A stretch of DNA of 64,000 bases from a virus. Every line of letters begins with the position of its first letter. Position 1 is the first letter of the stretch. Location: the IMG/VR virus record IMGVR_UViG_3300032285_004008; one strand, given 5' to 3'. Both the position numbers and the translations under genes were made by a program. Shown in pieces: positions 7,159 to 45,375 of this stretch. The notes under the pieces were generated by a model. The model made no database searches. It was not told where the DNA came from and worked only from the letters and a program-made list of their open reading frames with translations.

Positions 7159-7166
7159 AACAAGTC

Positions 7167-22029: not shown

Positions 22030-22479
22030 TTGTCTAGAAAGTTTTTAACACCGATAAACCTACCGCATGGGACCACTCTTCCATCGGTAGGTTCATCTGG
22101 TGATTTATTTTACAAAACAGACGAGCAAACAGTATATGTACATACATCTACGAGATGGATTGCGGCTCAAGGTGGCGGTAGCGGTGGGTACCTATCATCT
22201 TTATATGATGTCTCTATAACAGCGCCTATAGAGGGAGACATTCTCCTATATAACAGCGCAGACTCTACATGGCAAAATACTTCTCTAGCCGATATTCTAT
22301 ATGGCCCTGTAAGCACAGCCTGGATGAGCCAAGTAATGACAAATGTATTAATAGAGACCGGACTATTAAATGGTGATAGCGGATTATACAACGCTCAGCC
22401 AACTGGTACAATTGATGGTGGAACCCCGACCACTTCTTACCTAATTACCTATGATGGTGGAAACGAAAGTAGCTTCTAA
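22030..22479 (+). CDS. Small fibre-associated structural protein
   Basis: N-terminus resembles 19641 (MSR.FLT..NL); [15 protein letters not shown]....W repeat module. Confidence 0.6.
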
Positions 22480-25400
22480 TGGCAATTAAGATTCAGATTA
22501 GACGCGGTACAGCCGCTAACTGGACCTCGACCAATCCTACTCTTTCAGTCGGAGAACTAGCTCTAGAGACGGATACCGGTAAACTAAAGGTAGGTACCGG
22601 CACAACAGCATGGGTAGACCTAGCTTATGCAGGAATGACTCCCACTGAGGTGGCAACTGCTATTACAACAGCTGTTTCCAATGTCATTGATATGGCACCA
22701 GGTGCTCTAGATACTCTAAATGAGCTAGCTGCAGCAATCAATGATGATCCAGCATTCTTTAGTAGCATTGCAACAAACATTTCAGGTGCTATTACAACAG
22801 CTAACACCTATACCGATACTTCTATCAATGCACTTACCACTTCAGACATTGAAGAAGGTACTAACAAATACTTTACAGACGAGCGTGCTCAAGATGCTGT
22901 CGCTGCAGCAATAGCCGCTGGAACCCATGCAAACATCACTATTACTTACGATGATGTACACAACAAGATTAGTTTTGCCGCCGAGAATGGTGTTGCTGAC
23001 TCAACTACAGATGACTTAGCTGAAGGTACTAACCACAAATACTTCACCAACCAGCGTGCATTGGATGCGACTGCTAGTGCTATCTCTACTGCTGCAAGCG
23101 GAGCAGTAACCTCTGCAAATGGGTATACCGATACAGCTGTATCTAACTTAGTAGATGCTGCCCCTGGACTACTCAATACCCTAAATGAGCTAGCTGCGGC
23201 CATCAACGATGATGCCAACTTCTCTACTACAGTTGCTACTAGCATCGGTACTGCTAAGACTGATGCTATTGACCACGCTGATAGCATTATGGCCACCCAC
23301 GAGGGTCTTACTACAAATGTTCACGGTATCTCAGATACTCGTAACTTAGTCTATGAAACCCAGTTGATCACTAATATCAACACTCACTCAAACAAAACTA
23401 CCAATGTGCACGGCATTGCGGATACCAATGCAATTGCTCTGAAAAATAACCCAACATTTACCGGTAGCGTATCTCTTCCAGTGGATACAACAATTGCCAC
23501 ATATGGTGGAGTTCACACTGTAGGGCCGAATCAGTTCACTACTCTTAGCGAAATTACTGCTTCTGCAGCAGAAATTAACACCCTAGATGGTATTACAGCT
23601 AGTACGGCTGAGCTCAATACTCTAGACGGCATCACTGCAAGCACATCTGAATTAAATACTCTAGACGGCATCACTGCAACTACTACAGAGTTAAACACTC
23701 TACATGGCCTTACAGCTAGCACAGCCGAGTTAAATACTCTAGATGGCATTACTGCTAGCACTACCGAGCTAAATATTCTAGATGGAATCCTAGCAACCAC
23801 AGCAGAGCTAAATACTTTAAATGGCATCACTGCAAGTACATCTGAATTAAATACACTAGATGGAATAGTTGCTACTACCGTAGAGCTAAACTATCTTTCT
23901 GGTGTTACAGGGGCTATTCAAACTCAAATTAGCAGCAAAGCTCCTATAGATAGTCCTACATTTACTGGCACTGTCTCAGGTATAACCAAGGCAATGGTTG
24001 GCCTAGGAAACGTCAATAATACTTCAGATGCAAATAAGCCAGTATCTATTGCAGCTCAAACCGCTTTAGATCTTAAGGCTAACCTTTCTGGTGGAGCTAC
24101 CTTCACAGGAACCATCAGCCTTCCTCAAACTACCTCTATTGGTAACGTATCCGCCACCGAGCTCAACTATCTAGATGGTGTTACATCTGCAGTTCAGACC
24201 CAGTTGGATTCAAAAGCACCGCTATCTGGTCCAACATTTACTGGAACTGTAGTTCTTCCAAGTACTACTTCAATTGGTAACGTATCTGCAACTGAAATAG
24301 GATACGTAGATGGAGTTACCTCTTCAATTCAGACCCAGTTGGATGCCAAGGCTCCTACTGCAGATCCTACATTTACTGGAACAGTATCCGGTATCACAAA
24401 GTCGATGGTTGGCCTAGGCAATGTAAATAATACCTCGGATGTAAATAAACCAGTAAGCACTGCTACTCAGACTGCTCTAGATCTTAAACAAGATAAGGTA
24501 ACTGGCGTATCTGATACCGAAATCGGATACCTAGATGGCGTTACTAGTTCGATCCAGACTCAGCTTGATTCAAAGCTAGCTTCATCTACTGCAGCTTCTA
24601 CTTATGCACCATTAGCAGCACCTACCTTTACTGGAACCGTTGTCCTGCCATCAACTACTTCTATTGGAAGTGTCTCAGCCATCGAGATTGGTTATGTGGA
24701 TGGTGTAACTTCGGCTATCCAGACTCAGCTTGATTCAAAGCTAGCTTCATCTACTGCAGCTTCTACTTATGCTCCGATTGATAGCCCTACGTTTACAGGT
24801 ACGGTTTCTGGCATTACTAAGTCTATGGTTGGTTTGGGCAACGTTACCAATACTTCTGATGCCAATAAGCCAGTATCAACTGCTCAGCAGACTGCTCTAG
24901 ATGCAAAACTTTCCCTAAGCGGCGGCACCATGACAGGAGCCTTGACGCTTTCAGGTGCTCCAACTTCTGATCTACATGCAGCTACAAAGCTATATGTGGA
25001 TGGAGTTGCCTCGGGCATTAACTTCCACGCTCCAGTAGTTGCAGCTACAGCCGGAAATCTTGCTGGAACATATGACAACGGTACAAATGGGTATGGTGCA
25101 ACTCTAACAAAAGCATCTAATGGATCAATTGGAACTATTGATGGTGCATCAGTAGTAGTTGGTTCACGTATCTTACTCCGTGCACAGACCGATGCAAAAC
25201 AAAATGGTATTTATACCATTACTGCTGTAGGTAGTGGATCAGCTCCTTGGCAGATAACTCGTGCTGCAGATGCTGACAATAACCCATCTGGTGAACTTGC
25301 CGGTGGAGATTTCTGCTTCGTTACAGGTGGTAGCACCTATGCAAACACTGGATTTATCTTATCTAACTCTGGCTCAGTTGCAATTGGAACTGACAATGTT

Positions 25401-26201
25401 ACATATGTGCAGTTCAATGCTGCTCAAGCAATTGTTACCGGGTATGGTCTAACTAAAACTGGTGGAACAATTGCTGCAGATAACACTGTACTTGCTCCAC
25501 TTGATGCTCCAACCTTCACGGGAACAGTGGTACTGCCAAGTACAACATCTATAGGTAGCGTAAGTGCCACGGAGATTGGGTATGTAGATGGCGTTACTAG
25601 TTCGATCCAAACTCAGCTAGATGCTAAAGCACCAAGCTCTTCTCCTACCTTTACCGGAACTGTGACTACCCCGCTATCTACAGCTGGATATGTTAAGACT
25701 AATTCAAGTGGTGTTCTGAGCTCATCTGCGGCCATTTCACCATCAGATATTACTGGAACTGCAGTTATTACAACAGACTCTCGTCTATCTGATTCTCGTA
25801 CACCTACCGGTTCTGCTGGTGGAGACCTTACTGGAACATACCCAAACCCGACCTTAGCAACTACAACAGTCACCGCTGGTTCATACACAAGTGCAAACAT
25901 CACAGTTGACTCTAAGGGTCGCATTACTGCTGCATCTAAGGGAGCAGCTGTAACTTCAGCCTCTTCTGCACCATCATCACCTACTGCAGGAGATGTTTGG
26001 TTTAATACAAATGATGGAAACCTATATGTCTACTACGGCACCACATGGGTTCTATCTAATGGAGTTACAAACCCTAATGGTTCTGGAGTTCCAGCAGGCG
26101 GAACTACCGGTCAAGTCTTAGTTAAAAAATCAGGCACTGATAACGATACTCAATGGGTCACACAGAGCGTTGATATAATGGTTATCATGGGTGCCTACTA
26201 A
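22479..26201 (+). CDS. Long tail fibre with Mtd_N/hyaluronidase-like N-terminal domain and internal repeats
   Basis: [11 protein letters not shown]...NP.L..GE...[15 protein letters not shown]-terminus; repeats [39 protein letters not shown]. Confidence 0.8.
23553..23909 (+). repeat. Tandem 39-bp (13-aa) coding repeat, about 9 copies of ITAST.ELNTLDG
   Basis: Read directly from the translation. Confidence 0.85.
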
Positions 26202-26235: not shown

Positions 26236-26550
26236 ATGGCTACGTTAACAAAGGCTCTAGCAAGAGCTTCATTTGCAACATCAGTTGGAGACCTATACAC
26301 AGTCCCAACTACCGGAACCACGACCATCGTAACTAACATTGTAATTACTAATACAACTAGTTCTGCAGGTACTTTTACTATTCTGCTAGATGGTGTTGAG
26401 CTCTTTGCAACTAGCCCAATTGCTGGAAATGCTACCGTTTCTATGGACCTAAAGCAGGTTTTGGATGCCAATGCTACTCCAAAGAAGATTAGAGGATTTG
26501 CCTCTGCAACTACTATCAAAGTACACATCAGTGGAGTGGAGCTATCCTAA
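26236..26550 (+). CDS. Small virion structural protein
   Basis: LYTVP...TTIV.NI...N...HISGVE beta-rich module; coupled to the next gene. Confidence 0.6.
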   Translation: MATLTKALARASFATSVGDLYTVPTTGTTTIVTNIVITNTTSSAGTFTILLDGVELFATSPIAGNATVSMDLKQVLDANATPKKIRGFASATTIKVHISGVELS

Positions 26551-29500
26551 TGTCATCTAATATCTATCCAAATCCTAATTCAGTCTTTACTCCTACAGAG
26601 GTTTTAAACGACCCTGTAAATAAGCTACGTACCTCAAGCCCACAGGCTCTTATTGATACTGACTTCGAGTATGGTACTCAGATTTCAAAGTGGGAAAACC
26701 TAGCTGCAACAAATAACCGTCCATTTGCAGCACCATCGGCCACCACATTGAGTAATATTTCTTCGATGACTATGTCTTCAAATGCTCGTGTAGTTACTGT
26801 TTCTCTCTCAACCACTTCGTCTACACCAAACTCTGTAGCCTCTGCCACTCCTGTTACTGGTTTTGCCACGTACACTACTGCTGCTAGCCACGGATTCTTC
26901 CCTGGTCAATACGTAACAATTGCCGGTTCCTCTGTATCTGGCTATAACGGAACATTTTTAATTACATCAACCCCTACTGCAACCACATTTGTTGTAGCCA
27001 ACTCAACTACGGGAACTCCATCATGGTCAGGTGCATCTGCACTTGCTGGTGTTGCTCCAGCAGTTGGCTCGGCAATCACGGTACAGGATACATACCTAAA
27101 TATTGCAAATGGTAACTTCTTGATTGAGACCGGTGGTGGAACTGGTACTTTTACCTACTTAGGTCGTGCTCAGAATACCCTGGGTGTTACTTCAATTTTT
27201 GACCCAAACAAGACATCTATTGCTGTAGCAACTATTTATACAAATGCTCAGATTGGTGGAGCACCTACAGTAACAGTTTCAGGTACTGATCTAAAAGTCA
27301 CAGTAACAACAACTGTACCTCACGGATTATCAGTAGGCAATGAAATAGGTGTTACCGGTATTACCGGAACTAACCCACCAAATGGTTCGTATCAGGTAGC
27401 TACAGTTGCCTCTCCTACTACTTTTGTATATTATGCAGATCCTACAGAAGGAACCCCTTCTAGCTTGACTGCATCATCTGCAGCTATATATGTTCGTCCA
27501 CAAGCTCAGTTCCTACACCGTCCATTTGATGGTGGAGTTCTTTTCTCTGCTAACGGTTCTTCCAACTATGAAACTGCAATTCGCCAGACTCGTCGTTACT
27601 TCCGTTACCAGTCTGGTAAGGGTATCCAGATGTCTTCTGGAACTATCTTTAAGCCATATGGAAATATTGACAGCATTACCTCTAGCGGTGGAGTTGCAAC
27701 TGTAACCACTAAGGAGCAGCACAATATTCAGCCTGGAACAACTATCGTTATTTCTGGAGCAAATGAGTCAGCATATAACGGTTCATTTACTGTTAGCAGT
27801 ATTACCGGTTATAACTCCTTCACATATGCAATTACCGGAAGCCCTGCTAGCCCAGCAACTGGAATTGTAAACGTAAACGTAAATACTTGGTACGGAGCAG
27901 CTAACCGTCTAGGAATTTTTGACAGCCAGAATGGACTTTTCTGGGAATTTGATGGTCAGAACCTATATGCAGTTAAGCGTTCTTCTACTCAGCAGCTTTC
28001 TGGCCGAGTAGACGTTACCAATGGATCAAATGTTGTCTCTAGAACTACATCCGCATTCCCTACTGCATTCTCTAGCCAGCTAAACCCTGGCGACTATGTA
28101 GTTATTCGCGGGCAGTCTTACCGAGTATTGGCAATTGATGACATATCATCTACACCAAACTTCACTATCTCTCCTTCATACCGTGGAGCTTCTACTTCAC
28201 ACGTAACTGTGTCTAAAACAATCGAGACTCGTATCCCTCAGTCGCAGTTTAATCTAGATAAACTAGATGGAACCGGCCCTTCTGGGTACACCATCGATCT
28301 AACCAAGATGCAGATGTTCTATGTGGACTACTCTTGGTATGGTGCTGGTTTTATCCGCTGGGGTGTACGTGCCACAAATGGTGACGTTATTTATGCACAC
28401 AAGATGCAAAACAATAACGTCAACAATGAAGCATACATGCGTTCAGGAAACCTTCCAGGTCGCTACGAGTCGCAGACTCTACCACCGACTACTAAGGTGA
28501 CTGCAAATATTGGTGCATCTGATACAACACTTACTGTTTCAGATACCTCATCTTTCCCTACTACTGGAACTCTTCTTATCCGTCCAAGTACAGCAACTAA
28601 CCAAGCATCGTTGACATATGAATATGTAAACTACACTGGTAAAACTGCAACTACTTTCACTGGTTTGACTCGTTCTCAGGCTGGCGCAGCTGGAGTAACT
28701 ACTACCTGGACAGCAGGCTCTAACTCAGGTACCGTATCCAGTGCAACAGGTATCCAGATCGGTCAACGAGTAGTATCTAGCACTAGCCCTAACCCAGTGC
28801 CAGACGGTACTTTTGTTACTGGAATTAGCGGAACAACTGTTACACTCAACTCTGCTCTAACGGCTAATAACCCGACTTTGATTTTTGCTCCGCTAGGTGC
28901 AACTTCTGGTACTGCTTATACATACTCAGCAGCATCTCCAATTTCAGTTGAGCTAGCAGCGCCTACATTCTCACCATCGGTATCTCACTGGGGTACCTCG
29001 GTTATTATGGATGGTCGATTCGATGACGACAAGTCTCTTATCTTCACATACGGTCAGACTAACTTTGCAACTATTGCTTCTGGTGCTAGCAAGGCTCTTA
29101 TGTCAATCCGAGTAGCTCCGTCTGTGGATAACGGTATTGGAGCTGCTTTTGGAGCTCGCGACTTGATTAACCGCATGCAGCTAAAGATGAGCGCCTTGGA
29201 TATCACTACTAAGACGACAGGTGCAAACCTTTTGATTCGTGCATATCTAAATGGTGTACCTTCATCGGCAACCGCATGGACAAACGCTGTGGGCAATATC
29301 CCAGGCGTTGTTAACTCGTCTCTAGCTCAGATTGCTGACCATGGTACCGGTGTGACAACAGTTTATGGTGGAGAAGTTACCGGTGGATTCTTTGTATCTA
29401 CAACTGGTTCGATTGATCTAGGATCTCTACGAGACCTAGGTAACTCTATCCTAGGTGGTGGCTCCACAGTAGCAAACACCGGAATCTACCCAGATGGACC

Positions 29501-29588
29501 TGATACACTTACATTTGTAGTTACAAATGTTGGTACAACATCTGCAGATGTACTTGGACGCATCTCTTGGACTGAAGCGCAGGCATAA
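26550..29588 (+). CDS. Large virion structural protein with repeated beta modules
   Basis: PQALIDTDFEYG.Q..KWE, RQTRRYFRYQSGKG, repeated TT..PHG....GQ.VTI.G modules; Thr/Ser/Gly-rich. Confidence 0.65.
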   Translation: MSSNIYPNPNSVFTPTEVLNDPVNKLRTSSPQALIDTDFEYGTQISKWENLAATNNRPFAAPSATTLSNISSMTMSSNARVVTVSLSTTSSTPNSVASATPVTGFATYTTAASHGFFPGQYVTIAGSSVSGYNGTFLITSTPTATTFVVANSTTGTPSWSGASALAGVAPAVGSAITVQDTYLNIANGNFLIETGGGTGTFTYLGRAQNTLGVTSIFDPNKTSIAVATIYTNAQIGGAPTVTVSGTDLKVTVTTTVPHGLSVGNEIGVTGITGTNPPNGSYQVATVASPTTFVYYADPTEGTPSSLTASSAAIYVRPQAQFLHRPFDGGVLFSANGSSNYETAIRQTRRYFRYQSGKGIQMSSGTIFKPYGNIDSITSSGGVATVTTKEQHNIQPGTTIVISGANESAYNGSFTVSSITGYNSFTYAITGSPASPATGIVNVNVNTWYGAANRLGIFDSQNGLFWEFDGQNLYAVKRSSTQQLSGRVDVTNGSNVVSRTTSAFPTAFSSQLNPGDYVVIRGQSYRVLAIDDISSTPNFTISPSYRGASTSHVTVSKTIETRIPQSQFNLDKLDGTGPSGYTIDLTKMQMFYVDYSWYGAGFIRWGVRATNGDVIYAHKMQNNNVNNEAYMRSGNLPGRYESQTLPPTTKVTANIGASDTTLTVSDTSSFPTTGTLLIRPSTATNQASLTYEYVNYTGKTATTFTGLTRSQAGAAGVTTTWTAGSNSGTVSSATGIQIGQRVVSSTSPNPVPDGTFVTGISGTTVTLNSALTANNPTLIFAPLGATSGTAYTYSAASPISVELAAPTFSPSVSHWGTSVIMDGRFDDDKSLIFTYGQTNFATIASGASKALMSIRVAPSVDNGIGAAFGARDLINRMQLKMSALDITTKTTGANLLIRAYLNGVPSSATAWTNAVGNIPGVVNSSLAQIADHGTGVTTVYGGEVTGGFFVSTTGSIDLGSLRDLGNSILGGGSTVANTGIYPDGPDTLTFVVTNVGTTSADVLGRISWTEAQA

Positions 29589-30476: not shown

Positions 30477-31823
30477 ATGAGCAAAAGAACCGGTAAGCAC
30501 TCCGCACAGCAGAATGACTTTTTGCAGCCAGCTGCAGTAACTATCACCACTGCAACTAACGTTGGTACTAACCGACCATACCTGTTTTCTGCTACTGGAA
30601 ATGCTGGCACTGGTGGTGCAGTAAACCTAGTATGGACTCTACCTAATGGCTCAGCTCCAGCTATAAGCTACGATATTACAACTACCCCTACAACTGTAAC
30701 CAAAAACACAACTACACTTCCAACTTCTGGATCTCCATTCGTATTTGAAGGTCTTGCCTCTGGTACAGACTATACATTCACGGTAGTAGCTAAGAACAAT
30801 GCTGGAAACTCAAATCCAACAACTTCTCAAACAGTCTCTGTAAGTACTGTACCTCCTGCCCCAAATACTCCGTCAGTTCGTCAGGTCAGTAATGACCAAA
30901 ATGACTACCTAACAATTACAATCTCTGCAACTGGTGGTTCTGCAATTACCAACTTCCACTGGGAAAGTACTGACTCTAAGTCTGGTGACCGAGGAACTAG
31001 TACCGCAGAATTTGCTGTAGCTCAGGAAGCTAATACTGCCCAACAGTATCGTGCTTATGCCACAAACGCCAATGGAAATTCAGACTGGTCTGGTTATTCT
31101 GGGTCTGTAACAACTCCTCCTTACTTCCCCCCTTACTTCCCGTTCTTCCCTTACTTCCCGCCATTCTTCCCGTACTTCCCTCCTTATTTCCCATACTTCC
31201 CATATTTCCCTCCTTATTTCCCATACTTCCCACCGTTCTTCCCTTATTTCCCTTATTTCCCACCGTTCTTCCCTTACTTCCCACCGTTCTTCCCTTATTT
31301 CCCACCGTTCTTCCCGTTCTTCCCGTTCTTCCCTCCTCGCTTCTGCATCGAGGAAAGTACTTTGGTTGATACTCCTTCGGGATCAGTAGCGGCTAAGGAT
31401 CTTAAGGTAGGAGATACCTTGGTATCAGTAGCTCTAGAAGAGCTTTCAACAGAGCCTCGATCTGAAGAAAACTTTATTATTGGCCCTACACTAACCCTCG
31501 GCGGTGGAGAGCCAGTAGAGACTACTATCGTTGACATTATCGAGAGTACTAAGGCAGAAATCGTATACTTCAATGAAGATACAACTGCTAAGTACTCAAA
31601 TGAGCAGTCAATGTTTGCCCTAGTTGATGGTCAGTTCCAGACTATAAATGCTGGACTACTGAAGCCTGGAGACTACTTGGTCAAGGTGCTGCCGGATGGT
31701 ACTTATGTAACAGAAGAGATCTCATCTATCACCGAGATTTACGAACCTACAACCGTATATCAGTACATCTGTGAACCATATAACTGGTTTATTGCAGGTG
31801 GATATCTAGTACACCAGAACTAA
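30477..31823 (+). CDS. FN3-like domains + 76-aa Pro/Tyr/Phe repeat + C-terminal Hint (intein-like) domain
   Basis: FN3 pattern (GLASGTDYTFTVVAKNNAG); repeat at aa 214-289; Hint from Cys290: CIEESTLVDTPSG..KDLKVGD ... LKPGD ... VYQY..EPYNWFIAGGYLVHQN*. Confidence 0.8.
   Translation: MSKRTGKHSAQQNDFLQPAAVTITTATNVGTNRPYLFSATGNAGTGGAVNLVWTLPNGSAPAISYDITTTPTTVTKNTTTLPTSGSPFVFEGLASGTDYTFTVVAKNNAGNSNPTTSQTVSVSTVPPAPNTPSVRQVSNDQNDYLTITISATGGSAITNFHWESTDSKSGDRGTSTAEFAVAQEANTAQQYRAYATNANGNSDWSGYSGSVTTPPYFPPYFPFFPYFPPFFPYFPPYFPYFPYFPPYFPYFPPFFPYFPYFPPFFPYFPPFFPYFPPFFPFFPFFPPRFCIEESTLVDTPSGSVAAKDLKVGDTLVSVALEELSTEPRSEENFIIGPTLTLGGGEPVETTIVDIIESTKAEIVYFNEDTTAKYSNEQSMFALVDGQFQTINAGLLKPGDYLVKVLPDGTYVTEEISSITEIYEPTTVYQYICEPYNWFIAGGYLVHQN
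31116..31343 (+). repeat. P(P)[YF]F coding repeat, 22 units; polypyrimidine-skewed
   Basis: PPYF PPYF PFF PYF PPFF ... PPRF, read from the sequence. Confidence 0.95.
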
Positions 31824-31829
31824 ATTAAG

Positions 31830-31862
31830 AAAAAATAAGGCCCCCACGGGCCTTATTTTTTT
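31830..31862 (+). terminator. Rho-independent (bidirectional-type) terminator
   Basis: AAAAAATAAGGCCC-CCAC-GGGCCTTATTTTTTT. Confidence 0.85.
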
Positions 31863-31914: not shown

Positions 31915-32667
31915 ATGACATACGATCCAAGTCAAAATAACTGGTTTACTAAAGACAGATCAGAAACTACTAGTAATAGGTCTGCAAATCGCCAGTTAGG
32001 TCCAATTACCGTATCTAATCCAGCACTGGGGATTAATGTTTATAGTGGTGCAATTTCTAGAGAACAAGGTCTTAAGTACATAGAGACTCTAGAATCTCAT
32101 TTGAATGGGCAAACAAAATATGAGTGGCAGGGGGCTCGCGTGACCTCCTCAGACGAAGTTGCCTTATATGCCAGAAACGCTTTAGATTTTAAAATTAGCT
32201 CTAATAATCTAGGAGCTAGAACACAAGAAAACTCAGAGCTATATGACATGCATGAAAGAGTTTTTCAGGCTATTCGCCAATGTGTCGATGATTACGGTCG
32301 CCTATGGGGGGTAGGGATCGCATCCTATGAGTCCTTTAATTTTGTAAAATATGATGGCCCTGGCACTCACTTTAAGATTCATGCCGATCATGGACCAACC
32401 TATGTATGCACAATATCTGTCGTAGTTTATTTGAATGACGATTATGAGGGTGGAGAGATTTATTTCCCAAGATTTGATGGTCTAACTATTAAGCCAAAAG
32501 CTGGAGACATCGTTGTGTTCCCATCTACTTTTATCTATGAGCACGCATCTCAAGATATGGTTAGCGGAATTAAGTATGCAGTAGTTGTAATGACTGACTA
32601 CAACGATCGCGATGGGGTAAACCACCGAGTATCTCCAACTATTCAAAACTATGAACTGAAGTACTAG
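31915..32667 (+). CDS. 2OG-Fe(II) dioxygenase, P4H-like (array gene 1)
   Basis: HADHG...YLNDDYEGGEIYF...FPS...H...GIKY. Confidence 0.88.
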   Translation: MTYDPSQNNWFTKDRSETTSNRSANRQLGPITVSNPALGINVYSGAISREQGLKYIETLESHLNGQTKYEWQGARVTSSDEVALYARNALDFKISSNNLGARTQENSELYDMHERVFQAIRQCVDDYGRLWGVGIASYESFNFVKYDGPGTHFKIHADHGPTYVCTISVVVYLNDDYEGGEIYFPRFDGLTIKPKAGDIVVFPSTFIYEHASQDMVSGIKYAVVVMTDYNDRDGVNHRVSPTIQNYELKY

Positions 32668-32680
32668 TAGAAGGAAGCAA

Positions 32681-33430
32681 ATGGAAACTGGACACATTAG
32701 CGCCCCCGATGAGCAGATGAAAAAAGACATGGAAGAGCACAATACTCGTCTCAAGTCTTGGTATAACATCGGGAATCAAACTTGGAGTTCGGCAGAAGAA
32801 GTAGCTCCTGGAACAGGAATTTGGGTATACCATGACGTACTTCCACCAACCTTAAACATTATTGATCGTCTAGAAGCAGTTCTCAGCGATCCATCTAATG
32901 ACTACAATTTTGCAGATGCTATGGTTGGCTACGGGGTGAAGATGCCAGAATACCGAGACTGCTTTGATTTCAAATATAAAAAGAGTGATATTGCTCAGGA
33001 TACAACCCCATCTGGGCTAGCATTGCATCAGCTAGCGGATGATGTCTATTCCAGAGAACTAGAGGCTGTAAAGCACTACACTAAGCACTACAATATCGGT
33101 GAACTCCGATACTGGGAAGCAACTAACTATATTAAATATGGCCCTGGTCAGCACTTCCAAGAGCACCATGATCATGGATTTTCATATAACTGTGTTGTGT
33201 CTCTAGTAGCATTCCCTAACGATGATTACGAAGGGGGGGAGCTATATTTCCGTCTCCACAATGTAACCATTAAACCTAAGGCGGGAGATCTATACATCTT
33301 CCCATCTAACTTTATGTACCCACATCGAGCGATGCCAGTTAAATCAGGGACCAAGTACTCTATGGTTACAATGCTTGACTATAGCGATAAGTTTCACAAT
33401 CCTAAATTTTATGAAGAAACTGGAAGCTAA
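32681..33430 (+). CDS. 2OG-Fe(II) dioxygenase, P4H-like (array gene 2)
   Basis: HHDHG...NDDYEGGELYF...FPS...H...GTKY; paralog of array gene 1. Confidence 0.88.
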   Translation: METGHISAPDEQMKKDMEEHNTRLKSWYNIGNQTWSSAEEVAPGTGIWVYHDVLPPTLNIIDRLEAVLSDPSNDYNFADAMVGYGVKMPEYRDCFDFKYKKSDIAQDTTPSGLALHQLADDVYSRELEAVKHYTKHYNIGELRYWEATNYIKYGPGQHFQEHHDHGFSYNCVVSLVAFPNDDYEGGELYFRLHNVTIKPKAGDLYIFPSNFMYPHRAMPVKSGTKYSMVTMLDYSDKFHNPKFYEETGS

Positions 33431-34167
33431 TGAAGAAAATTGAAGTAAGACGTCTACGCCCCACCTCGGCTCAGGTAGAGCAGCTACCTGGAACCAGAGA
33501 GTGGATGGACAACACTCACGATAAGCATGCGTATATGTGCTTCCCGGTCTCTCTCACTAATCGGTTGGGCTGGGGAATATCTTTCCCCGAGGACATCTCT
33601 TTTATCTGGGATGGTGTGGAGAACTATGAACAACACCACGTAAAAGTCCTTAAGGGATCCGACTATGTATATACAGGAAGAGCCCACGGCACAGTTAGTT
33701 TCTATGGTGGACTAATGATTAGAACCGATGAGAATACGTCAATGCTTACGATGCCTACACCTAATCTATTTATTAGGGGTATTCAGCCGTTTACGACGCT
33801 AATGAGCACATCTTTCTATACGGGAGAATATCCACTAGCTCTTAAGATAACTGAGCCAAATCGAGAAATAACTATCCCAGCTGGTACCCCTATTTTTACC
33901 ATTCTGCCTATTTCAATCGGTAGCTTGCAAGACGAATACGAGATGGAAATCTCTGAAGGTGATATGTCTCGTGAATACTATGAAGAACTTAAGAAATATG
34001 GCGATGCTGCAGAGGCTAAGAACTCTGTTGGCGACTGGTCAAAGATGTATCGAGATGCAATCAACTATGACGGAAGTTCAATGGGATCGCATGAGTCAAA
34101 AAATATTCGACTAAAGACAGTAAAGTGTCCAGTAACAGGAGATACCTATGAAATCCCAGCTGATTAA
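33430..34167 (+). CDS. DUF6065-like protein (array gene 3)
   Basis: REWMD....HAY.C.P....N..GW...P.D..FIWDG and IPAGTP motifs. Confidence 0.6.
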   Translation: MKKIEVRRLRPTSAQVEQLPGTREWMDNTHDKHAYMCFPVSLTNRLGWGISFPEDISFIWDGVENYEQHHVKVLKGSDYVYTGRAHGTVSFYGGLMIRTDENTSMLTMPTPNLFIRGIQPFTTLMSTSFYTGEYPLALKITEPNREITIPAGTPIFTILPISIGSLQDEYEMEISEGDMSREYYEELKKYGDAAEAKNSVGDWSKMYRDAINYDGSSMGSHESKNIRLKTVKCPVTGDTYEIPAD

Positions 34168-34885
34168 GTTTATAAGTAATCGACCTTGGTTGAATAGCAA
34201 AAGTGCTTCTGTACCAGGCCCTACTATTAAAACTATTCCAGAATGGTATCGTAAGGCTGATCGTTTTGCAATCAACCCCCACACCAACGAGCCATGGATT
34301 AATCCTCAAGACGGTGGAAAAGTCCCTACATGGAAAGCTTGCCCAGCGGTATTTGACATCATGGGCACTGGCTATGTCTATAAGACCCCATGCGACGTTG
34401 AGGTCTATGAAGAAAATGGCGAGATCCGGATTCGAGTATTAGATCCTCAGAATAAGGACTTTGTTGGCGATCGTATGCCAATGCCCCAGTTTGTTTCGCC
34501 ACGCGGGTATCACGAGAAGCATTTTGCCTGGTGGGCCGATTGGGCAGTAGTTCTTCCAGAGGGCTATAGTGCACTTTATTCTCAGCCTTTTAATCGCTTT
34601 GAGCTACCGTTCTTAACGACCAGTGGAATTATTGATAATGATAAAGTTCATCTCCCAGGTACCATGCCATTTTTTATTGCTAAAGGTTTTACTGGAGTAA
34701 TCCCAGCCGGGACTCCATATGCTCAAATCATCCCATTCAAGCGTGAAGACTGGACCTCAGAGGTTCAAACTAATATCGGCTATGAGCAGATGATGAAGAA
34801 TAATATGGAAAATAGCCAGAAGTACCGAGTACCTAATGGTGGAGTTTATCAAAAGGAAGTCTGGACTCGCCGAGTCTACGAGTAA
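34148..34885 (+). CDS. DUF6065-like/dUTPase-fold phage protein (array gene 4)
   Basis: PEWY...TWKACP...D....GY...TPCD, PEGYS.L..QPFN, SGIIDND, IPAGTP.AQIIPFKREDW. Confidence 0.55.
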   Translation: MKSQLIKFISNRPWLNSKSASVPGPTIKTIPEWYRKADRFAINPHTNEPWINPQDGGKVPTWKACPAVFDIMGTGYVYKTPCDVEVYEENGEIRIRVLDPQNKDFVGDRMPMPQFVSPRGYHEKHFAWWADWAVVLPEGYSALYSQPFNRFELPFLTTSGIIDNDKVHLPGTMPFFIAKGFTGVIPAGTPYAQIIPFKREDWTSEVQTNIGYEQMMKNNMENSQKYRVPNGGVYQKEVWTRRVYE

Positions 34886-34899
34886 TGTAGGATAAAAGT

Positions 34900-35574
34900 A
34901 TGAGTGAACAAGAACTAGCAAATAGCCACAGAGGTGCTGAACGAGTATCTATTACTCCTTCTGGATTTTTTGGTAACTCCCCTGACAATATTGTCACCCT
35001 AGAAAACTTTATGACTGAAGAAGAAATAGTCGCACTGGATACTTTTATTCGTAGCAATACCGAGTGGGATGTAACTGAGACCCACTACAACGACGAGGGC
35101 ACAGTGATCTATGACTCTGACTACTGGGCAAACAGGGTTGCCACGTATGGAACTATCGATCGAGTAAATCCGGAAATCCCTAGAATTATTGAGGGAATGG
35201 TAGCTCGTTTTAAGGTTGAAGTAGATAAGTTCTTTAATGTTGATGCCATGCCAACAAGCCCTGCTCTAGTTCGATGGCTACCAGGGATGTTCCAGCACCC
35301 ACATGCTGATAAGGAACTTCACGTTGGTGATGATAGAGGAAAGCCAAATGATTTTCCATATTATGACCTAGCTGGCCTTTTTTATATCAATGACGACTAC
35401 GAGGGTGGAGAGCTGTACTTCCCAAACCAGGGAATCCAGTTCAAGCCAAAGCGTGGAGCTGCCTACTTCTTCCCCGGAGATATGAACTATATCCATGGGG
35501 TAACTGAGATTAAATCCGGTATTCGCTACACATGCCCGTTCTTCTGGACAATTGTTAAGCATCATGGAAGTTAA
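34900..35574 (+). CDS. 2OG-Fe(II) dioxygenase, P4H-like (array gene 5)
   Basis: HAD...YINDDYEGGELYFP...HGV...GIRY. Confidence 0.88.
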   Translation: MSEQELANSHRGAERVSITPSGFFGNSPDNIVTLENFMTEEEIVALDTFIRSNTEWDVTETHYNDEGTVIYDSDYWANRVATYGTIDRVNPEIPRIIEGMVARFKVEVDKFFNVDAMPTSPALVRWLPGMFQHPHADKELHVGDDRGKPNDFPYYDLAGLFYINDDYEGGELYFPNQGIQFKPKRGAAYFFPGDMNYIHGVTEIKSGIRYTCPFFWTIVKHHGS

Positions 35575-36328
35575 AAACCTATACCCAAAAATAAGTGTTT
35601 ATAGCGGTTTGCTAGGAAATACTTCTGAGCTTGTGACTACCCTAAGGGAAGTATATGACTGGGATGGTTGGTATACTTTTGGCGATCAGACCGTTATCCA
35701 GTTGAATCGTAGAACCTTCGAGACCTTCCCAACGAAAGAAGAGTGGAAGCAGATTGAAGATTCTGTAGAAAAGCCTAACTCAGCGGCAAGTATGATCTTG
35801 TCTGCCTTCTATGAAGCAACTAAACATTATGTAGAAAATAACAAAATTACTCCAGTAGCTTGGAATTTTAACTCTCCTGCAATATGCATGTATAACACTA
35901 ATGCTGGTGCATCAGAAGAAGTTGCCATGCACTACCACACCGATTTTCAGCAAGAAAAACGTGATGAACCCGGATTTAAACCATACATTACATGCACTAT
36001 GTATTTGAATGACGACTATGAAGGTGGAGAGATAGATTTTAAGATTCTAAAAGAAGGATCTCCATCAGATAATTTTGTATACAAACCCAAAGCAGGGGAT
36101 ATTTTAGTATTCCCATCTAATCAGCCTTACTACCACGGAGTGCATTTAACAACCAAAGGTCAAAAATATTTTGTTAGATCGTTCTGGGACTATTACTTTC
36201 CAGGCACCCCGGAATGGCACCAAGGACTTAAATCATATGGTCAAGAAAAATGGCTAGAGATGGAAGCTCAGCGGGAGAAGGCAGAGAGAATTGATGGACG
36301 CTATAACCTCATGAATGGGGATTACTAA
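35564..36328 (+). CDS. 2OG-Fe(II) dioxygenase, P4H-like (array gene 6)
   Basis: HTD...YLNDDYEGGEI.F...FPS...HGV...GQKY; start probably ATG 35564. Confidence 0.88.
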   Translation: MEVKNLYPKISVYSGLLGNTSELVTTLREVYDWDGWYTFGDQTVIQLNRRTFETFPTKEEWKQIEDSVEKPNSAASMILSAFYEATKHYVENNKITPVAWNFNSPAICMYNTNAGASEEVAMHYHTDFQQEKRDEPGFKPYITCTMYLNDDYEGGEIDFKILKEGSPSDNFVYKPKAGDILVFPSNQPYYHGVHLTTKGQKYFVRSFWDYYFPGTPEWHQGLKSYGQEKWLEMEAQREKAERIDGRYNLMNGDY

Positions 36329-37053
36329 TGTCGTATTCTTTAGATTCAAATACTTTTATATACTATAAAAATGAAATAAATACAAAATCTCAGCTCGGTG
36401 TGCTAGAAAATAAAATTGTTGAAATACCTAATTTTGTAGATGCTGATATTGCAGAGAAACTAATTGAGTATTTTGAAAATGGCCCAGAATCCTGGGAGCC
36501 TATTGCTTTTTACGGCTCCTATGGCATGGGACTGAATCCAGATGCTGAAGAGTTAAAAAAGTTTGACCTAGACTCTAAAGTGTTTGAAATTATAAACAGC
36601 AAAACTAAAGCCGCTGTAGAGATTATTTTTAATATAGAAGTTAAACCAAATACATCTCACGCCCAAAAATGGGTGGAGGGTGGATTTGCCTATCCTCACT
36701 CGGATAATTCCGATTTTGACGGGAATCCAACTGCATTCGAAATAAACAAATATGTAGCCATTTTATACTTAAATGATGACTATACTGGCGGGATCTTGCA
36801 CTTCCCAGACCATAACCTTTCAATTAAGCCTAACAAATACTCTATATACATAATGCCTGGTGGTATAGAGAATATCCATGAAGTAAGGGAAATACTCTCT
36901 GGAGAACGCCACACTATGCTCTCGTTCTGGGATTTTGCAGATTCAACCTACTCGGAAGAAAGAAAGCTTCAGTGGGAAAAAGAATTAGAAGAAGTTAGAG
37001 CCTCTCAAGCCGAGCAACGCGAAGAGTGGAAAAACGGAAATAAATACGCATGA
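36328..37053 (+). CDS. 2OG-Fe(II) dioxygenase, P4H-like (array gene 7)
   Basis: HSD...YLNDDYTGG.L.F...HEV...GER. Confidence 0.88.
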   Translation: MSYSLDSNTFIYYKNEINTKSQLGVLENKIVEIPNFVDADIAEKLIEYFENGPESWEPIAFYGSYGMGLNPDAEELKKFDLDSKVFEIINSKTKAAVEIIFNIEVKPNTSHAQKWVEGGFAYPHSDNSDFDGNPTAFEINKYVAILYLNDDYTGGILHFPDHNLSIKPNKYSIYIMPGGIENIHEVREILSGERHTMLSFWDFADSTYSEERKLQWEKELEEVRASQAEQREEWKNGNKYA

Positions 37054-37066
37054 ATAAGGTAGCACT

Positions 37067-37864
37067 ATGTCAGAACTAAATCCTATAGAGATATACCCAA
37101 GAATCATGGTATTTAAGGGTGCATTTAAAGACCCGATGGCTTTTATTGAAAAAGTTAAGCAGCTTCCTACGTGGCAAGCTTGGTGGACTTTTGGAGAATT
37201 GGCAAGCCTACCTGGACCCGAATATACAAGATTCGAAACCAAACCAACCCCCGCCGAGTGGGAAAAATTTATTGCAGATACTGAGGTAAATCAGAAAGGT
37301 ATGCCAGGTGCTGATTTACCACCATACATTGATCAACTTTTTTATGAAGTAACTAATCACTATATGGATGTATACCCACTTGAATTAAAAAACTGGTGCC
37401 ACCAAAAACCTTCTATTGCTAAATATGTAGCTCTAGGTGGGGTTGATGATGATCGCTACTCAATGCATTACCACACAGACTTTCAGCGAGAAAAAGCAGA
37501 TGCACCTGGTCTCAAGTTTGCACTAACTTGCACCATGTACTTGAATGACGACTATGAGGGCGGGGAGCTTTCATTTAAAATTCTTCGAGAAGACGGTGTG
37601 GTGGATACTATAGATTTTAAGCCTGGTTTAGGTGACGTAGTTGTTTTTCCATCAGTAGAGCCGTACTTTCACGGGGTACGTCAAATTGCAACAGGAGATC
37701 GTTATTTTATTAGAACTTTTTGGCTAGAGCAGTTCGAGGGAACCCCGGAGTGGAATGCTGGATTAGCAGAGCACGGGCCGGAGAAATGGGCTGAAATGGA
37801 AAAAGCTAGAGAAAGCGCCTTTAGAAGAGAGCAAGACAAACATAGGGATAGGTTCTACGACTAG
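37067..37864 (+). CDS. 2OG-Fe(II) dioxygenase, P4H-like (array gene 8)
   Basis: HTD...YLNDDYEGGELSF...HGV...GDRY; paralog of array gene 6. Confidence 0.88.
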   Translation: MSELNPIEIYPRIMVFKGAFKDPMAFIEKVKQLPTWQAWWTFGELASLPGPEYTRFETKPTPAEWEKFIADTEVNQKGMPGADLPPYIDQLFYEVTNHYMDVYPLELKNWCHQKPSIAKYVALGGVDDDRYSMHYHTDFQREKADAPGLKFALTCTMYLNDDYEGGELSFKILREDGVVDTIDFKPGLGDVVVFPSVEPYFHGVRQIATGDRYFIRTFWLEQFEGTPEWNAGLAEHGPEKWAEMEKARESAFRREQDKHRDRFYD

Positions 37865-37901
37865 TAGTATACTTATATTTTAAGAATAAATTAGGAGAAA
37901 A

Positions 37902-38591
37902 ATGATTCCGGAACCGATATGGCTAAAGGATGATGTTGTCACATTTCCTGAATTTTTAAGCCCGGAAGAGTGCAACAAGATTATTGCATTCTTTGAAGAA
38001 CAGGGTACAGTATCAGGTCACTGGATGCAGACCTGCTTCTATGACTCTCTAGGCATGGCTCTCATGATTGATGAGGATGCCTTGCATCGTTCGGGGTTGG
38101 AAGATATCCACCAAAACTATTTCCGTTGGTTGCCAGAGCACATCCGCGCTGCCGTAGAGCAAGCCTACGATCGAGAAGTTACTTTAAATAGTGCTCATGC
38201 TCAGAAATGGCCAAAGGGGGCTTTTGCTCGTTGGCACTCGGATAGTTCTGACCTAGAGGGAAATCTAACTGCATGGCGTAACAATAAGTTTGCCACCGTT
38301 CTATATTTAAATGATGATTACGAGGGTGGGGAGCTAGAGTTTCGTGATCATGATCTAACTGTAAAACTCCCTCAGGGTAGCCTAATTGCTTTTCCTGGTG
38401 GCGTTCAGAATATTCATCGTATTACTGAAATTCTAGAAGGAACTAGATTTACAGTAGTAGGTTTCTGGGATTATGCTGACTCGGTTTACACCGAAGAAGA
38501 GCTCAAGCAGATGGAAGATGAAATTGCGTATGAGCGCACCCGCCAGGATGAGCAAAAGAAGCAATGGGCTGCAGGGAACAAAAACGCTTAA
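37902..38591 (+). CDS. 2OG-Fe(II) dioxygenase, P4H-like (array gene 9)
   Basis: HSD...YLNDDYEGGELEF...HRI...GTRF; paralog of array gene 7. Confidence 0.88.
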   Translation: MIPEPIWLKDDVVTFPEFLSPEECNKIIAFFEEQGTVSGHWMQTCFYDSLGMALMIDEDALHRSGLEDIHQNYFRWLPEHIRAAVEQAYDREVTLNSAHAQKWPKGAFARWHSDSSDLEGNLTAWRNNKFATVLYLNDDYEGGELEFRDHDLTVKLPQGSLIAFPGGVQNIHRITEILEGTRFTVVGFWDYADSVYTEEELKQMEDEIAYERTRQDEQKKQWAAGNKNA

Positions 38592-38607
38592 ATAGCTTGG
38601 GAGAGCC

Positions 38608-39297
38608 ATGATTGATCCATCAAAAGTAACTGTATATGCCGACAGAATTTTTTATTTTGAAGGCATTTTAGATGATCCTGAATATGCAATAGATATGCAT
38701 AAAAATATGGATTCTTTGCTAGAAACAGATCACTATGATGTTTTCCATAAGCTAGGTCCGTGGCAAACATCGGATGAGATACCGCACATCTATGGCACTA
38801 AGCGTATGTCCACAAGAATGTATTTAGAGTCTACTAAAAACGAGGAAGTAAAAGCTTTTTATACAAAAATAAATAATATTTTTGATGAAGCTGGTCGTTA
38901 CTACTTCGATGCTCTTGGCATGGATTATCAAGGTGGCAGAATTATGACTGATTTTGCCTCATTCCACTACAATACTGGAGAGGAAATGGGGCCTCATGTT
39001 GATGATAACTATGAGCCTCAAGTGGACCCTATTTGTACAGGATTAATTTACCTAAATGATAACAAAATAGGTGGAGATCTTTGGTTTCCAGAGCAGAATT
39101 TAACTATTAAATCTACTCCAGGAAGCATGGTTATTTTCCCATGCGTAAAGCCATTTTTTCACTCATCTACCAAAATTCAGCAAGGTGAAAAATTCCACAT
39201 TGGTACCGGGTGGAAGCGTCATAGAACTCCAGAAGAAATTGCAGCACTAGATCCGGATTATGGAAAAGATGCTAGACCAGACCTAGCTATGAAATAA
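38608..39297 (+). CDS. 2OG-Fe(II) dioxygenase, P4H-like (array gene 10)
   Basis: HVD...YLND...GGDLWFP...HSS...GEKF. Confidence 0.85.
   Translation: MIDPSKVTVYADRIFYFEGILDDPEYAIDMHKNMDSLLETDHYDVFHKLGPWQTSDEIPHIYGTKRMSTRMYLESTKNEEVKAFYTKINNIFDEAGRYYFDALGMDYQGGRIMTDFASFHYNTGEEMGPHVDDNYEPQVDPICTGLIYLNDNKIGGDLWFPEQNLTIKSTPGSMVIFPCVKPFFHSSTKIQQGEKFHIGTGWKRHRTPEEIAALDPDYGKDARPDLAMK

Positions 39298-39751: not shown

Positions 39752-39752
<1 letters not shown>
39387..39752 (+). CDS. Virion adaptor-like protein; first gene of fibre cassette 2
   Basis: DQGATL...LTTENGGI...YVYDLEM...G.L.VRPEVT; paralog of 18951. Confidence 0.6.
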
Positions 39753-44403
<4,651 letters not shown>

Positions 44404-44412
44404 GAATAGACA

Positions 44413-45375
44413 ATGGCAACCGCAACGACAGCATTTAGTGGTAGACCCACACTATCGTTACGCTCTACCGTAACTGAAAGCAGTACAAACGCTAGCACCT
44501 ATGTAACTTCAGTTAACTGGAGCTTGGTGATTATTGCTTCCAGTAACACATCTACGGCCTACAATACTGGTGGTACCGCTGCTTGGTCTATGGATGTCAA
44601 TACTAATGGAAGTACTCCAGTATCTTCTGGAACCTATAGTTACGATTTTCGCGCACCGAATACAACAACAAATAAAACTATTGCATCTGGTAGTAAAAAT
44701 ATTTCTAGAGGCTCGTATGGGTCTTATACCACAAACTTTAGTGGATATGCAGATGGTGGAACTGGTGGTCTAATTGGTTCCGCTACAGCCGCTGGATCTC
44801 TTGCTCTAAGTAATATTGTTGCTCCACCATTCTTCCCATACTTCCCGCCATTCTTCCCGTACTTCCCTCCTTATTTCCCATACTTCCCTCCTTATTTTCC
44901 TTATTTCCCACCGTTCTTCCCGTTCTTCCCTCCTAACTTTACTCCAGCTCCTGGATGGTCTGGAACCGGTACAGATGTTGTATTAGCTACAGCAACCGAA
45001 GGAATTTACTACTCAGATGGAATAGCTGCAAGTAATGCTACTTCATACTCAATTACCAGCGGTTCATTCCCTAGTGGAATAACATTTGATACTTCTACTG
45101 GAGCAGTATACGGGACACCAGCTACTGGAACTAAAGGAACATACAACTTAACATTCACTGCATCTGGTGCTGGAGGTAGCACTACAAGTGGGACTATAAG
45201 TTTGATTGTTGTTCCAGAACCTGGTCAACTATTTACATATGACACTGCCACTGGAACCTGGAAAAAGGCAATAGTAAATACATACTCTAATGTGGGTGGA
45301 GTTCCAACATCAAGCAAGAATACCTTGTATGTATATGACTCAGCCTCAGGCCAGTGGGTAATTAGTAAGGGTTAA
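44413..45375 (+). CDS. Virion protein with Pro/Tyr/Phe repeat and Ig-like (He_PIG-like) domain
   Basis: 39-aa PPFF/PYF tract; YSITSGSFPSGITFDTSTGAVYGTP putative-Ig pattern. Confidence 0.7.
   Translation: MATATTAFSGRPTLSLRSTVTESSTNASTYVTSVNWSLVIIASSNTSTAYNTGGTAAWSMDVNTNGSTPVSSGTYSYDFRAPNTTTNKTIASGSKNISRGSYGSYTTNFSGYADGGTGGLIGSATAAGSLALSNIVAPPFFPYFPPFFPYFPPYFPYFPPYFPYFPPFFPFFPPNFTPAPGWSGTGTDVVLATATEGIYYSDGIAASNATSYSITSGSFPSGITFDTSTGAVYGTPATGTKGTYNLTFTASGAGGSTTSGTISLIVVPEPGQLFTYDTATGTWKKAIVNTYSNVGGVPTSSKNTLYVYDSASGQWVISKG
44824..44940 (+). repeat. P(P)[YF]F coding repeat, 11 units
   Basis: PPFF PYF PPFF PYF PPYF ... PPNF. Confidence 0.95.

Follow-up and report, generated by a model that had tools for sequence, protein, structure and literature searches.

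A 64,000-nucleotide stretch of viral DNA (IMG/VR record IMGVR_UViG_3300032285_004008; hereafter the window) carries a plus-strand gene at 30477-31823 for a 448-residue virion-appendage protein of a cyanophage, whose last 159 residues are, as judged by the modeled fold and by profile comparison, a genuine Hint-superfamily domain, with a similarity far beyond chance. The superfamily includes inteins, the processing domains of Hedgehog proteins, and bacterial modules of the intein-like (BIL) or pretoxin type. The domain described here is not an intein, since a C-extein, a +1 nucleophile, and a conserved insertion site are all missing. The description that fits best is that of a terminal autoprocessing domain resembling those of BIL and Hedgehog proteins, from a subfamily that is specific to phages and departs from the canonical catalytic residues. 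With modest confidence, sequence and model together point to a self-removing module that would break the Phe289-Cys290 bond through a thioester.

The C-terminal domain has a predicted Hint fold

An initial annotation, made by eye from the letters of the sequence, had proposed a C-terminal Hint domain running from Cys290, directly after PPRF, to a VHQN-stop ending, and had named prediction of a Hint fold beforehand as one test of this proposal. Sequence, predicted fold, and profile comparison all bore out these limits. Modeling of the domain by AlphaFold2 with a 45-sequence alignment of relatives resulted in a predicted local distance difference test score (pLDDT) of 96.1 and a predicted template modeling score (pTM) of 0.90, the model showing the pseudo-twofold, horseshoe-shaped beta-fold of the Hint superfamily. 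When this model was compared with known structures by Foldseek, only Hint structures were returned, with a BIL domain of Clostridium thermocellum on top and a probability of 1.00 for more than 40 structures. Superposition by VIA-align placed the model closest to the Mtu RecA intein (Z 17.4; root mean square deviation [rmsd] 2.1 Å over 131 residues), the Hedgehog processing domain HhC (Z 16.8; rmsd 2.4 Å over 135 residues), Tetrahymena BIL2 (Z 16.5), and the C. thermocellum BIL domain 2LWY (Z 16.4; rmsd 1.8 Å; 22% identity). These alignments ran from residue 1 to residue 158 or 159 of the model, and the N and C termini of the domain therefore coincide with the termini of inteins.

Profile comparison also led to Hint domains. 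The 45-sequence family profile, when compared with solved sequences, matched the C. thermocellum BIL domain best (E 2.9e-10), and several mini-inteins were recovered at 1e-7 to 1e-5. A Pfam scan of the protein gave Intein_splicing (E 9e-4; 19.5 bits; cut-off, 35.8) and Hint_2 (E 0.079; 13.8 bits; cut-off, 28.4), both below the curated threshold; Pfam by itself would have missed the domain. Among the 45 relatives, Intein_splicing was matched by 30, Hint_2 by 14, and PT-HINT by 10 at E <0.01. There is no dedicated Pfam model for the terminal phage Hint family, an NCBIfam search gave no match for the protein, and a PHROGs search with its Hint domain returned nothing significant. Pfam matches to PDZ in some relatives were rejected as short-motif resemblance around a 'KVGD' hairpin. 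No other Hint domain was found within the window.

Catalytic positions are partly substituted

The domain starts CIEESTLVDTPSG, with Cys290 directly after FPPRF. Its interior contains K-Y-S374-N-E-Q377-S-M-F and V-Y-Q429-Y-I-C-E-P, and it ends GGYLVH446-Q447-N448, followed by a TAA stop codon at 31821-31823. The by-eye alignment had read the block B T-x-x-H as SNEQ and the block F Asp as Gln, and both equivalences were recovered by profile alignment. In the comparison with the MJ0781 intein, 'T-H-D-H-P' was aligned with 'S-l-e-q-p', and when the 45-sequence profile was set against solved inteins, V427-Y428-Q429 fell on 'I-Y-D'. An hhalign comparison with a tail protein of Dickeya phage AD1 gave the same equivalences, the counterparts there being T-H-E-H, V-D-I-D, and A-H-N. 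In alignments with relatives, H446 corresponded to the penultimate His and Q447 to the terminal Asn. The block B hydroxyl is retained as Ser374, with Gln377 in place of the His of T-x-x-H, and neither the penultimate His nor the AGGYLVH strand has been lost from the protein. The description of these residues as non-canonical was correct insofar as the substitutions are real; however, the block B Gln is not peculiar to this gene but is the majority state in the phage family.

The domain also departs from class 1 inteins in its position. There is no C-extein with a Cys, Ser, or Thr at +1 and no terminal His-Asn, and the domain is terminal in almost all relatives, follows variable N-terminal architectures of ~190 to 1061 amino acids (aa), and contains no endonuclease insert. 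At most one residue (Asn448) lies past it, followed by the TAA codon and a terminator-like hairpin. Because the domain occupies the extreme C terminus with no more than one flanking residue, conventional splicing is impossible, as had been argued from the missing C-extein. The hairpin begins seven bases past the stop codon, and its position right behind the stop indicates that this gene end is real.

The domain defines a family of terminal phage Hint domains

Relatives of the domain were collected by a word-based search (7 close relatives), by a scan of IMG/VR (110 encoding loci, 80 of which were kept), and by a profile search of 1.84 billion representatives, which yielded 90 clusters at 50% identity with E ≤1e-30 and 734 with E ≤1e-10. 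The family alignment comprised 161 non-identical proteins in which the domain was complete and terminal. The sources were metagenomic, and the proteins were named 'hypothetical protein' or, on fragments, 'intein/homing endonuclease'. Among ~185,000 prokaryotic species genomes, only 3 loci were found, two of them on short contigs of metagenome-assembled genomes, which argues that the family is not cellular.

Although identity of the domain within the family drops to ~25%, two catalytic positions were fully conserved. Cys1, whose lack of conservation had been named as a possible refutation of the Hint assignment, was Cys in 159/159 relatives covering the position, and the block B Ser/Thr was present in 161/161. 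The block B His position was occupied by Gln in 96 members, by His in 42, and by Glu in 21; the block F Asp position held Asp in 36, Gln in 35, and other residues in 90. A His-Asn ending was found in 107 of 161 members. In 106 of these 107, a Lys followed at +1 (64 members), +2 (39 members), or +3 (3 members), and 46 of the 47 distinct His-Asn tails contained Lys, against a background Lys frequency of 5.9%. No His-Asn was present at all in 34 members, which end, for example, in VIA or VIS and have kept both Cys1 and block B. The block F Asp was retained in 27 of these 34 members versus 6 of the 107 with His-Asn. Members without His-Asn are thus mostly of the block F Asp type and have no Lys tail, and those with His-Asn carry Lys at +1 to +3 and are mostly non-Asp. 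This division of the alignment suggests two mechanistic subtypes, split by His-Asn/Lys versus block F Asp.

The position and surroundings of the domain were also conserved. Among the 150 best representatives, the domain was terminal in almost all, with tails of 0 to 19 residues. In 130 of 149 relatives, at least 50% of the 30 residues before Cys1 were Pro, Phe, Tyr, Trp, or Gly (median, 70%, versus 24% further upstream), a composition that fits an exposed, flexible scissile junction. The type of repeat upstream of Cys1 varied widely and included FPPFFPY, FGFTPFGA, FFAPPG, poly-Pro, and PVAPP.

Conservation of position bears on whether the domain is a decaying mobile intein, or whether the gene has lost its C-extein through truncation or assembly error. 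The intein-like blocks, the His-x-Asn-like ending, and the 'intein/homing endonuclease' labels on family fragments would fit such an origin. It is highly improbable and strongly disfavored, since 161 relatives from independent contigs carry the domain in the same terminal position and stop at the same point; the hairpin behind the stop, the absence of an endonuclease insert from the 159-residue mini-domain, and a ratio of nonsynonymous to synonymous substitution rates (Ka/Ks) of ~0.1 argue against it as well. Further, no homologue was found of an N-terminal part that lacks the insert but continues C-terminally.

Several subgroups had distinct architectures. In one subfamily (P0022, P0025, P0029, P0033, P0043, P0051, P0083, and L038), a tail of 13 to 19 residues with the motif K-(K)-G-x-F-Q-G-P-T-x-x-D extends past His-Asn; it looks like a short genuine C-flank that could be ligatable to the tether. 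In a subgroup without His-Asn (L033, L061, and L069-L071), two Hint-terminated structural genes lie within 6 kb of one another (positions 1 to ~1150 and ~5980-7280), one of them long (~640-970 aa; compare P0032, P0053, P0066, and P0076) and one of the FN3 type. Finally, P0069, P0073, P0126, P0132, P0143, P0150, P0154-P0156, and P0158 are proteins of ~500-1100 aa with 3 to 8 partial matches to the Hint profile, and several of them start with a signal-peptide-like segment followed by GGGG-C. These proteins may be multi-Hint polyproteins of cellular origin.

A proposed model for N-terminal cleavage, and its alternatives

In the proposed mechanism, Cys290 would attack the Phe289 carbonyl once the domain has folded, in an N-S acyl shift assisted by Ser374 and Gln377 and perhaps helped by the bulky Phe at -1. 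Water or another nucleophile would resolve the resulting thioester. Release of the Hint domain would then leave a mature protein composed of two FN3 domains and a Pro/aromatic tether ending at Phe289. A further reaction, at the C terminus and using His-Asn and the near-universal Lys, would probably be coupled to the first in most relatives. In the window protein, the C-terminal apparatus appears to have drifted to His-Gln-Asn without the Lys, and only the N-terminal reaction would be expected to matter. Persistence of Cys1 and block B in the 34 members without His-Asn argues that the N-terminal reaction is the conserved one. Possible purposes of such a reaction are removal of a cap from a sticky tether, or activation of the C terminus for attachment.

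Loss of the block B His has precedents. The orthologues of the Tko CDC21-1 intein naturally lack this His, have a bulky residue at -1, and still carry out the N-S acyl shift (PMC6333167). Similarly, the G-1F/H73A mutant of the Ssp DnaB M86 intein is still active, the bulky -1 residue rescuing the His-to-Ala change (PMC6333167). By analogy, the loss of the block B His appears compatible with activity in the window protein, in which the -1 residue is the bulky Phe289.

The HQN ending is common only to the window protein, P0003 (90% identical), and L005 and L006 (77%). The next relatives, L001 and L007, end in HNKL and HNK, respectively, and by this comparison the HQN ending is a derived state. 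Within the HQN clade, the Ka/Ks of the Hint domain was ~0.10 between the window protein and L005, a rough figure because Ks is near saturation. This value points to purifying selection on the domain within the clade.

Several observations weigh against self-removal. The block B His, which is the most conserved catalytic residue of inteins, the block F Asp, and the terminal Asn are all Gln in the window protein. Gly is often found at -1, and is in fact the commonest residue there among members with the block B Gln (20 of 95), so steric compensation cannot be a general rule. As a family rule it was rejected, since a bulky -1 residue does not track loss of the block B His; it may still apply to the window protein through Phe289. 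The closeness of Ks to saturation makes the estimate of selection only approximate. The invariant Cys could also do something other than cleave, for instance form a stable thioester or act in redox chemistry. Finally, self-removal leaves unexplained what a phage would gain from a 159-residue domain made only for discarding.

Alternatively, the domain could be catalytically dead and stay attached, so that the tether would end in a folded module serving as a binding head, a solubilizing cap, or a folding helper for the aromatic tract. Substitution of three canonical catalytic positions speaks for such a role, and purifying selection fits a structural role equally well. A folded tether end is, moreover, a normal arrangement, given that in the protein encoded at 44413-45375 in the window this repeat simply connects to a C-terminal domain that is folded. 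However, the conservation of Cys1 and of the block B Ser/Thr throughout a family with only ~25% identity is hard to explain without N-terminal chemistry, and a block B Gln, which most members of a thriving family have, is no sign of decay. An inactive structural domain, which the initial annotation had offered as an alternative, is therefore weakened by the invariant Cys1 and the low Ka/Ks but still stands, and we regard it as unlikely.

An equally unlikely outcome is that the thioester is used for ligation, so that the C terminus of the tether is passed to an amine in cis (on the short tail) or in trans (on a virion Lys) and the FN3 appendage is stapled in place. Both kinds of transfer have relatives among known BIL domains. 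BIL2 of Tetrahymena BUBL joins its N-flank to the epsilon-amine of Lys as an isopeptide, in cis or on other proteins (PMC8616854), and A-type BILs can ligate without a +1 nucleophile (PMC4031507). By analogy with BIL2, the Lys that follows His-Asn in nearly every member and nearly every distinct tail is a strong hint of amine capture in most of the family, and a tether that is attached after cleavage makes more sense than one that ends in nothing. In the window protein, however, the HQN-stop ending contains neither His-Asn nor Lys, which makes the cis route unlikely. The members without His-Asn also lack the Lys tail, and the product of ligation in cis would differ from the plain translated protein by only 1 to 4 residues. 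Since neither that Asn nor a Lys stands at its end, hydrolysis or capture in trans appears the more likely outcome for the window protein.

A more specific form of this proposal, drawn by analogy and in our judgment quite unlikely, is that the Hint thioester acts as an enzyme-free protein ligase that would join the Pro/aromatic tether to a lysine amine, leaving the FN3 appendage covalently stapled or isopeptide capped. The acceptor would be the Lys one or two residues past His-Asn in most relatives and a Lys of another virion protein here, and the reaction might be coupled to modification of the tract by the adjoining prolyl-hydroxylase-like oxygenases. Such a system would be a virion-assembly counterpart of BIL2-mediated ubiquitin-like conjugation.

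Layout of the gene and its neighborhood

The features of the gene are collected in Table 1. In a full-length AlphaFold2 model of the protein, two beta-sandwiches and the C-terminal Hint domain were predicted with confidence, and the tract at ~214-289 was of low confidence. The tract ends in PPRF, which places Phe289 at position -1 of the Hint domain. At the other end of the protein, Lys3 and Gly6 of the N-terminal peptide were invariant in 25 full-length relatives, and Ser9, Asn13, Asp14, Phe15, Leu16, and Pro18 were at least 90% conserved. This peptide is retained across the FN3-type family even where the Hint domains are only ~25% identical and the rest of the protein has strongly diverged; such conservation suggests that it may be a virion-docking, attachment, or targeting segment.

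Table 1. Coordinates of the features of the Hint-terminated gene and of the hairpin behind it
Feature	Position	Strand	Basis or remarks
Whole gene, 448 aa plus stop: N-terminal peptide, two FN3-like domains, Pro/aromatic tract, Hint domain	30477..31823	+	Open reading frame list, translation
N-terminal peptide MSKRxG(R/K)xSxQQNDFLxP, aa 1-18	30477..30530	+	Conservation in 25 full-length relatives
Two FN3-like beta-sandwich domains, aa ~20-125 and ~128-212	30534..31112	+	Pfam fn3 E 1.2e-8 on aa 45-116; strand pattern; pLDDT >90 in full-length model
Pro/Phe/Tyr low-complexity tract, 76 aa, aa 214-289	31116..31343	+	Sequence; DNA repeat family D3; pLDDT <50
Hint (BIL-like) domain, Cys290-Asn448, 159 aa	31344..31820	+	AlphaFold2, Foldseek, VIA-align, profile versus PDB sequences
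Cys290, Hint residue 1, predicted nucleophile; scissile bond Phe289-Cys290	31344..31346	+	Aligns with intein residue 1
Block B equivalent, S374-N-E-Q377 (versus T-x-x-H)	31596..31607	+	Profile alignments
Q429 at the block F Asp position	31761..31763	+	Aligned to Asp of 'IYDL' in MJ0781 and of 'VDID' in AD1
Block G equivalent, H446-Q447-N448 plus TAA stop	31812..31823	+	Sequence; alignments with relatives
Terminator-like GC-rich hairpin, A and T runs at flanks	31830..31861		14 pairs; reported on minus strand; near-palindromic, T run on plus strand

The window derives from a diverged T4-like cyanomyovirus, and the gene is located in its virion and tail-fiber block. The gene at 26550-29588, upstream of the locus, has matches in Synechococcus phages, at the DNA and protein levels, to genes annotated 'virion structural protein'. 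Neighborhood counts were made over the IMG/VR loci, some of which are near-duplicates. A homologue of the upstream tail-fiber-like gene ended within 400 nucleotides in 63 of 67 loci with enough flank. Downstream and on the same strand, a homologue of a prolyl 4-hydroxylase-like 2-oxoglutarate (2OG)-Fe(II) oxygenase started within 1.6 kb in 56 of 76 loci (the window genes lie in 31915-39297), and a DUF6065 homologue was found within 4.5 kb in 53 of 76. The neighboring oxygenase had no cultured-phage match at E ≤1e-20, and a control confirmed that the search was functional. Because the Pro-rich tract directly precedes the Hint domain, we advance the hypothesis that this tract, or nearby collagen-like fibers, is prolyl hydroxylated by the adjoining oxygenases.

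The Pro/aromatic repeat is not confined to the Hint gene. The gene at 44413-45375 on the plus strand encodes a 320-aa protein with the same PFFPYFPP repeat (family D3). This protein lacks a Hint domain, and the repeat lies internally, linking an N-terminal region to an Ig-like region at the C terminus. In view of this use as a plain linker, the tract behaves as a tether and is not Hint specific. Elsewhere in the block, the plus-strand gene at 22479-26201 encodes a 1240-aa tail-fiber-like protein with an N-terminal Mtd_N domain (major tropism determinant; E 1e-16). Two collagen-triple-helix proteins of 1090 and 459 aa (Pfam Collagen E 1e-97 and 1e-38) are encoded on the plus strand at 39752-44403, downstream of the oxygenase array.

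Relatives in cultured phages

By tblastn, 50,697 cultured-phage records contained no match for the whole protein, for its Hint domain, or for the Hint domain of relative L012. Phage S-RIM44, which among cultured phages comes closest in the upstream structural gene, had no Hint gene at that position. Ten family members matched phrog_38766, 'virion structural protein'. When the distant member L038 was used as the tblastn query, tail proteins of jumbo phages were recovered at 25-31% identity over 92% of the query, in Dickeya phage AD1, many Erwinia phages, Yersinia phage fHe-Yen9-02, and Phage NCTB, whose BN7874_136 is annotated 'putative phage tail protein, contains intein domain'. Thus, close cultured relatives are absent, but the architecture itself is present among cultured phages. 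Homology to the family was supported by an hhalign comparison with AD1_108 of Dickeya phage vB_DsoM_AD1 (probability, 98.5%; E 2.4e-15).

The layout of these jumbo-phage tail proteins follows the same logic as that of the family: a virion structural protein has a region of low complexity or of collagen-like sequence, and a short linker then leads to a terminal Cys-Hint domain with a tail of ~7-10 residues. In the jumbo-phage proteins, a middle domain lies between the collagen-like region and the linker. They differ in having the canonical T-x-x-H, block F Asp, and His-Asn, with a Thr at +1 in AD1. The +1/+2 Lys rule does not apply to them, and the repeats upstream of their Hint domains resemble collagen instead of being Pro/aromatic. 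The cultured jumbo-phage homologues join collagen repeats and a Hint domain in one protein, and the window has separate collagen-triple-helix proteins.

In Phage NCTB, a stand-alone 153-aa 'intein domain protein' (L085, 2980-3441) that ends GILVHNKVD and has no Cys at position 1 adjoins the Hint-terminated tail protein, and a 'large intein domain protein' is encoded nearby, from 4805 of L085 onward. The proximity of three intein-annotated genes indicates that Hint modules cluster in the tail-fiber region of this phage. Literature searches found no functional study of the jumbo-phage Hint tail proteins or of any phage C-terminal Hint/BIL function.

Significance and comparison with known Hint systems

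A few database annotations show Hint domains at the ends of phage virion proteins, but no study of this use was found. The family comes almost entirely from uncultivated phages and has rules of its own: an invariant Cys1, Ser-x-x-Gln, a His-Asn-Lys ending, a Pro/aromatic tract, and a 2OG-Fe(II) oxygenase neighborhood. If active, the domain would be a natural experiment on the N-S acyl shift without the block B His and would add a maturation step for phage appendages, and compact tags that cleave or ligate themselves might be derived from it. If inactive, it would be a catalytic fold recruited as a structural module.

The domain resembles Hedgehog HhC (1AT0) in being a C-terminal Hint module that would cleave at its own N-terminal Cys, the N-terminal product being handed to a nucleophile; the phage subgroups without His-Asn also lack block G, as HhC does. 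Absence of block G, the mark of B-type BIL and Hedgehog-like domains, was found in 34 of 161 relatives, whereas the window protein keeps the penultimate His. Identity to HhC is 7-9%; in Hedgehog, block B reads T-x-x-H and the Hint module is followed by a sterol-recognition region. The window protein ends with the Hint module, has no such region, and gave no sign of a lipid acceptor. In concept, the phage domain also resembles the Peptidase S74-type C-terminal intramolecular chaperones of phage tailspikes and fibers, which remove themselves once their job is done. These are trimeric, use a Ser-Lys dyad, and are unrelated in fold, and the analysis showed no match to them in sequence or structure.

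A-type BIL domains, represented by C. thermocellum 2LWY, share with the phage domain Cys1, a mini-Hint fold without endonuclease, the absence of a +1 Cys, Ser, or Thr, and a non-conserved, surface-exposed host protein. Most phage family members also end in the His-Asn that, with no +1 nucleophile, characterizes this type (107 of 161, the +1 residue being mostly Lys), in contrast to the His-Gln-Asn of the window protein. BIL domains yield mainly cleavage products (PMC4031507). The phage domain differs from the A-type in being last in its protein, with a tail of 0 to 19 residues, in having mostly Gln for the block B His, and in the Lys after His-Asn; it is also carried by a phage virion protein, in place of the secreted bacterial protein that hosts a BIL.

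Tetrahymena BIL2 (6Y75/6TMM) shares the fold, and its capture of Lys sets a precedent for the Lys that regularly follows His-Asn in the phage family. It differs in being eukaryotic, Zn regulated, and flanked by ubiquitin-like domains and in having the canonical catalytic His69; the window protein, for its part, is without the Lys. The Tko, Pho, and Pab CDC21-1 inteins (6RPQ and 6RPP) are true inteins: the protein that hosts them is conserved, and a C-extein and a +1 nucleophile are present. In this they differ from the phage domain, but they are among its high fold and profile matches and, like it, have no block B His.

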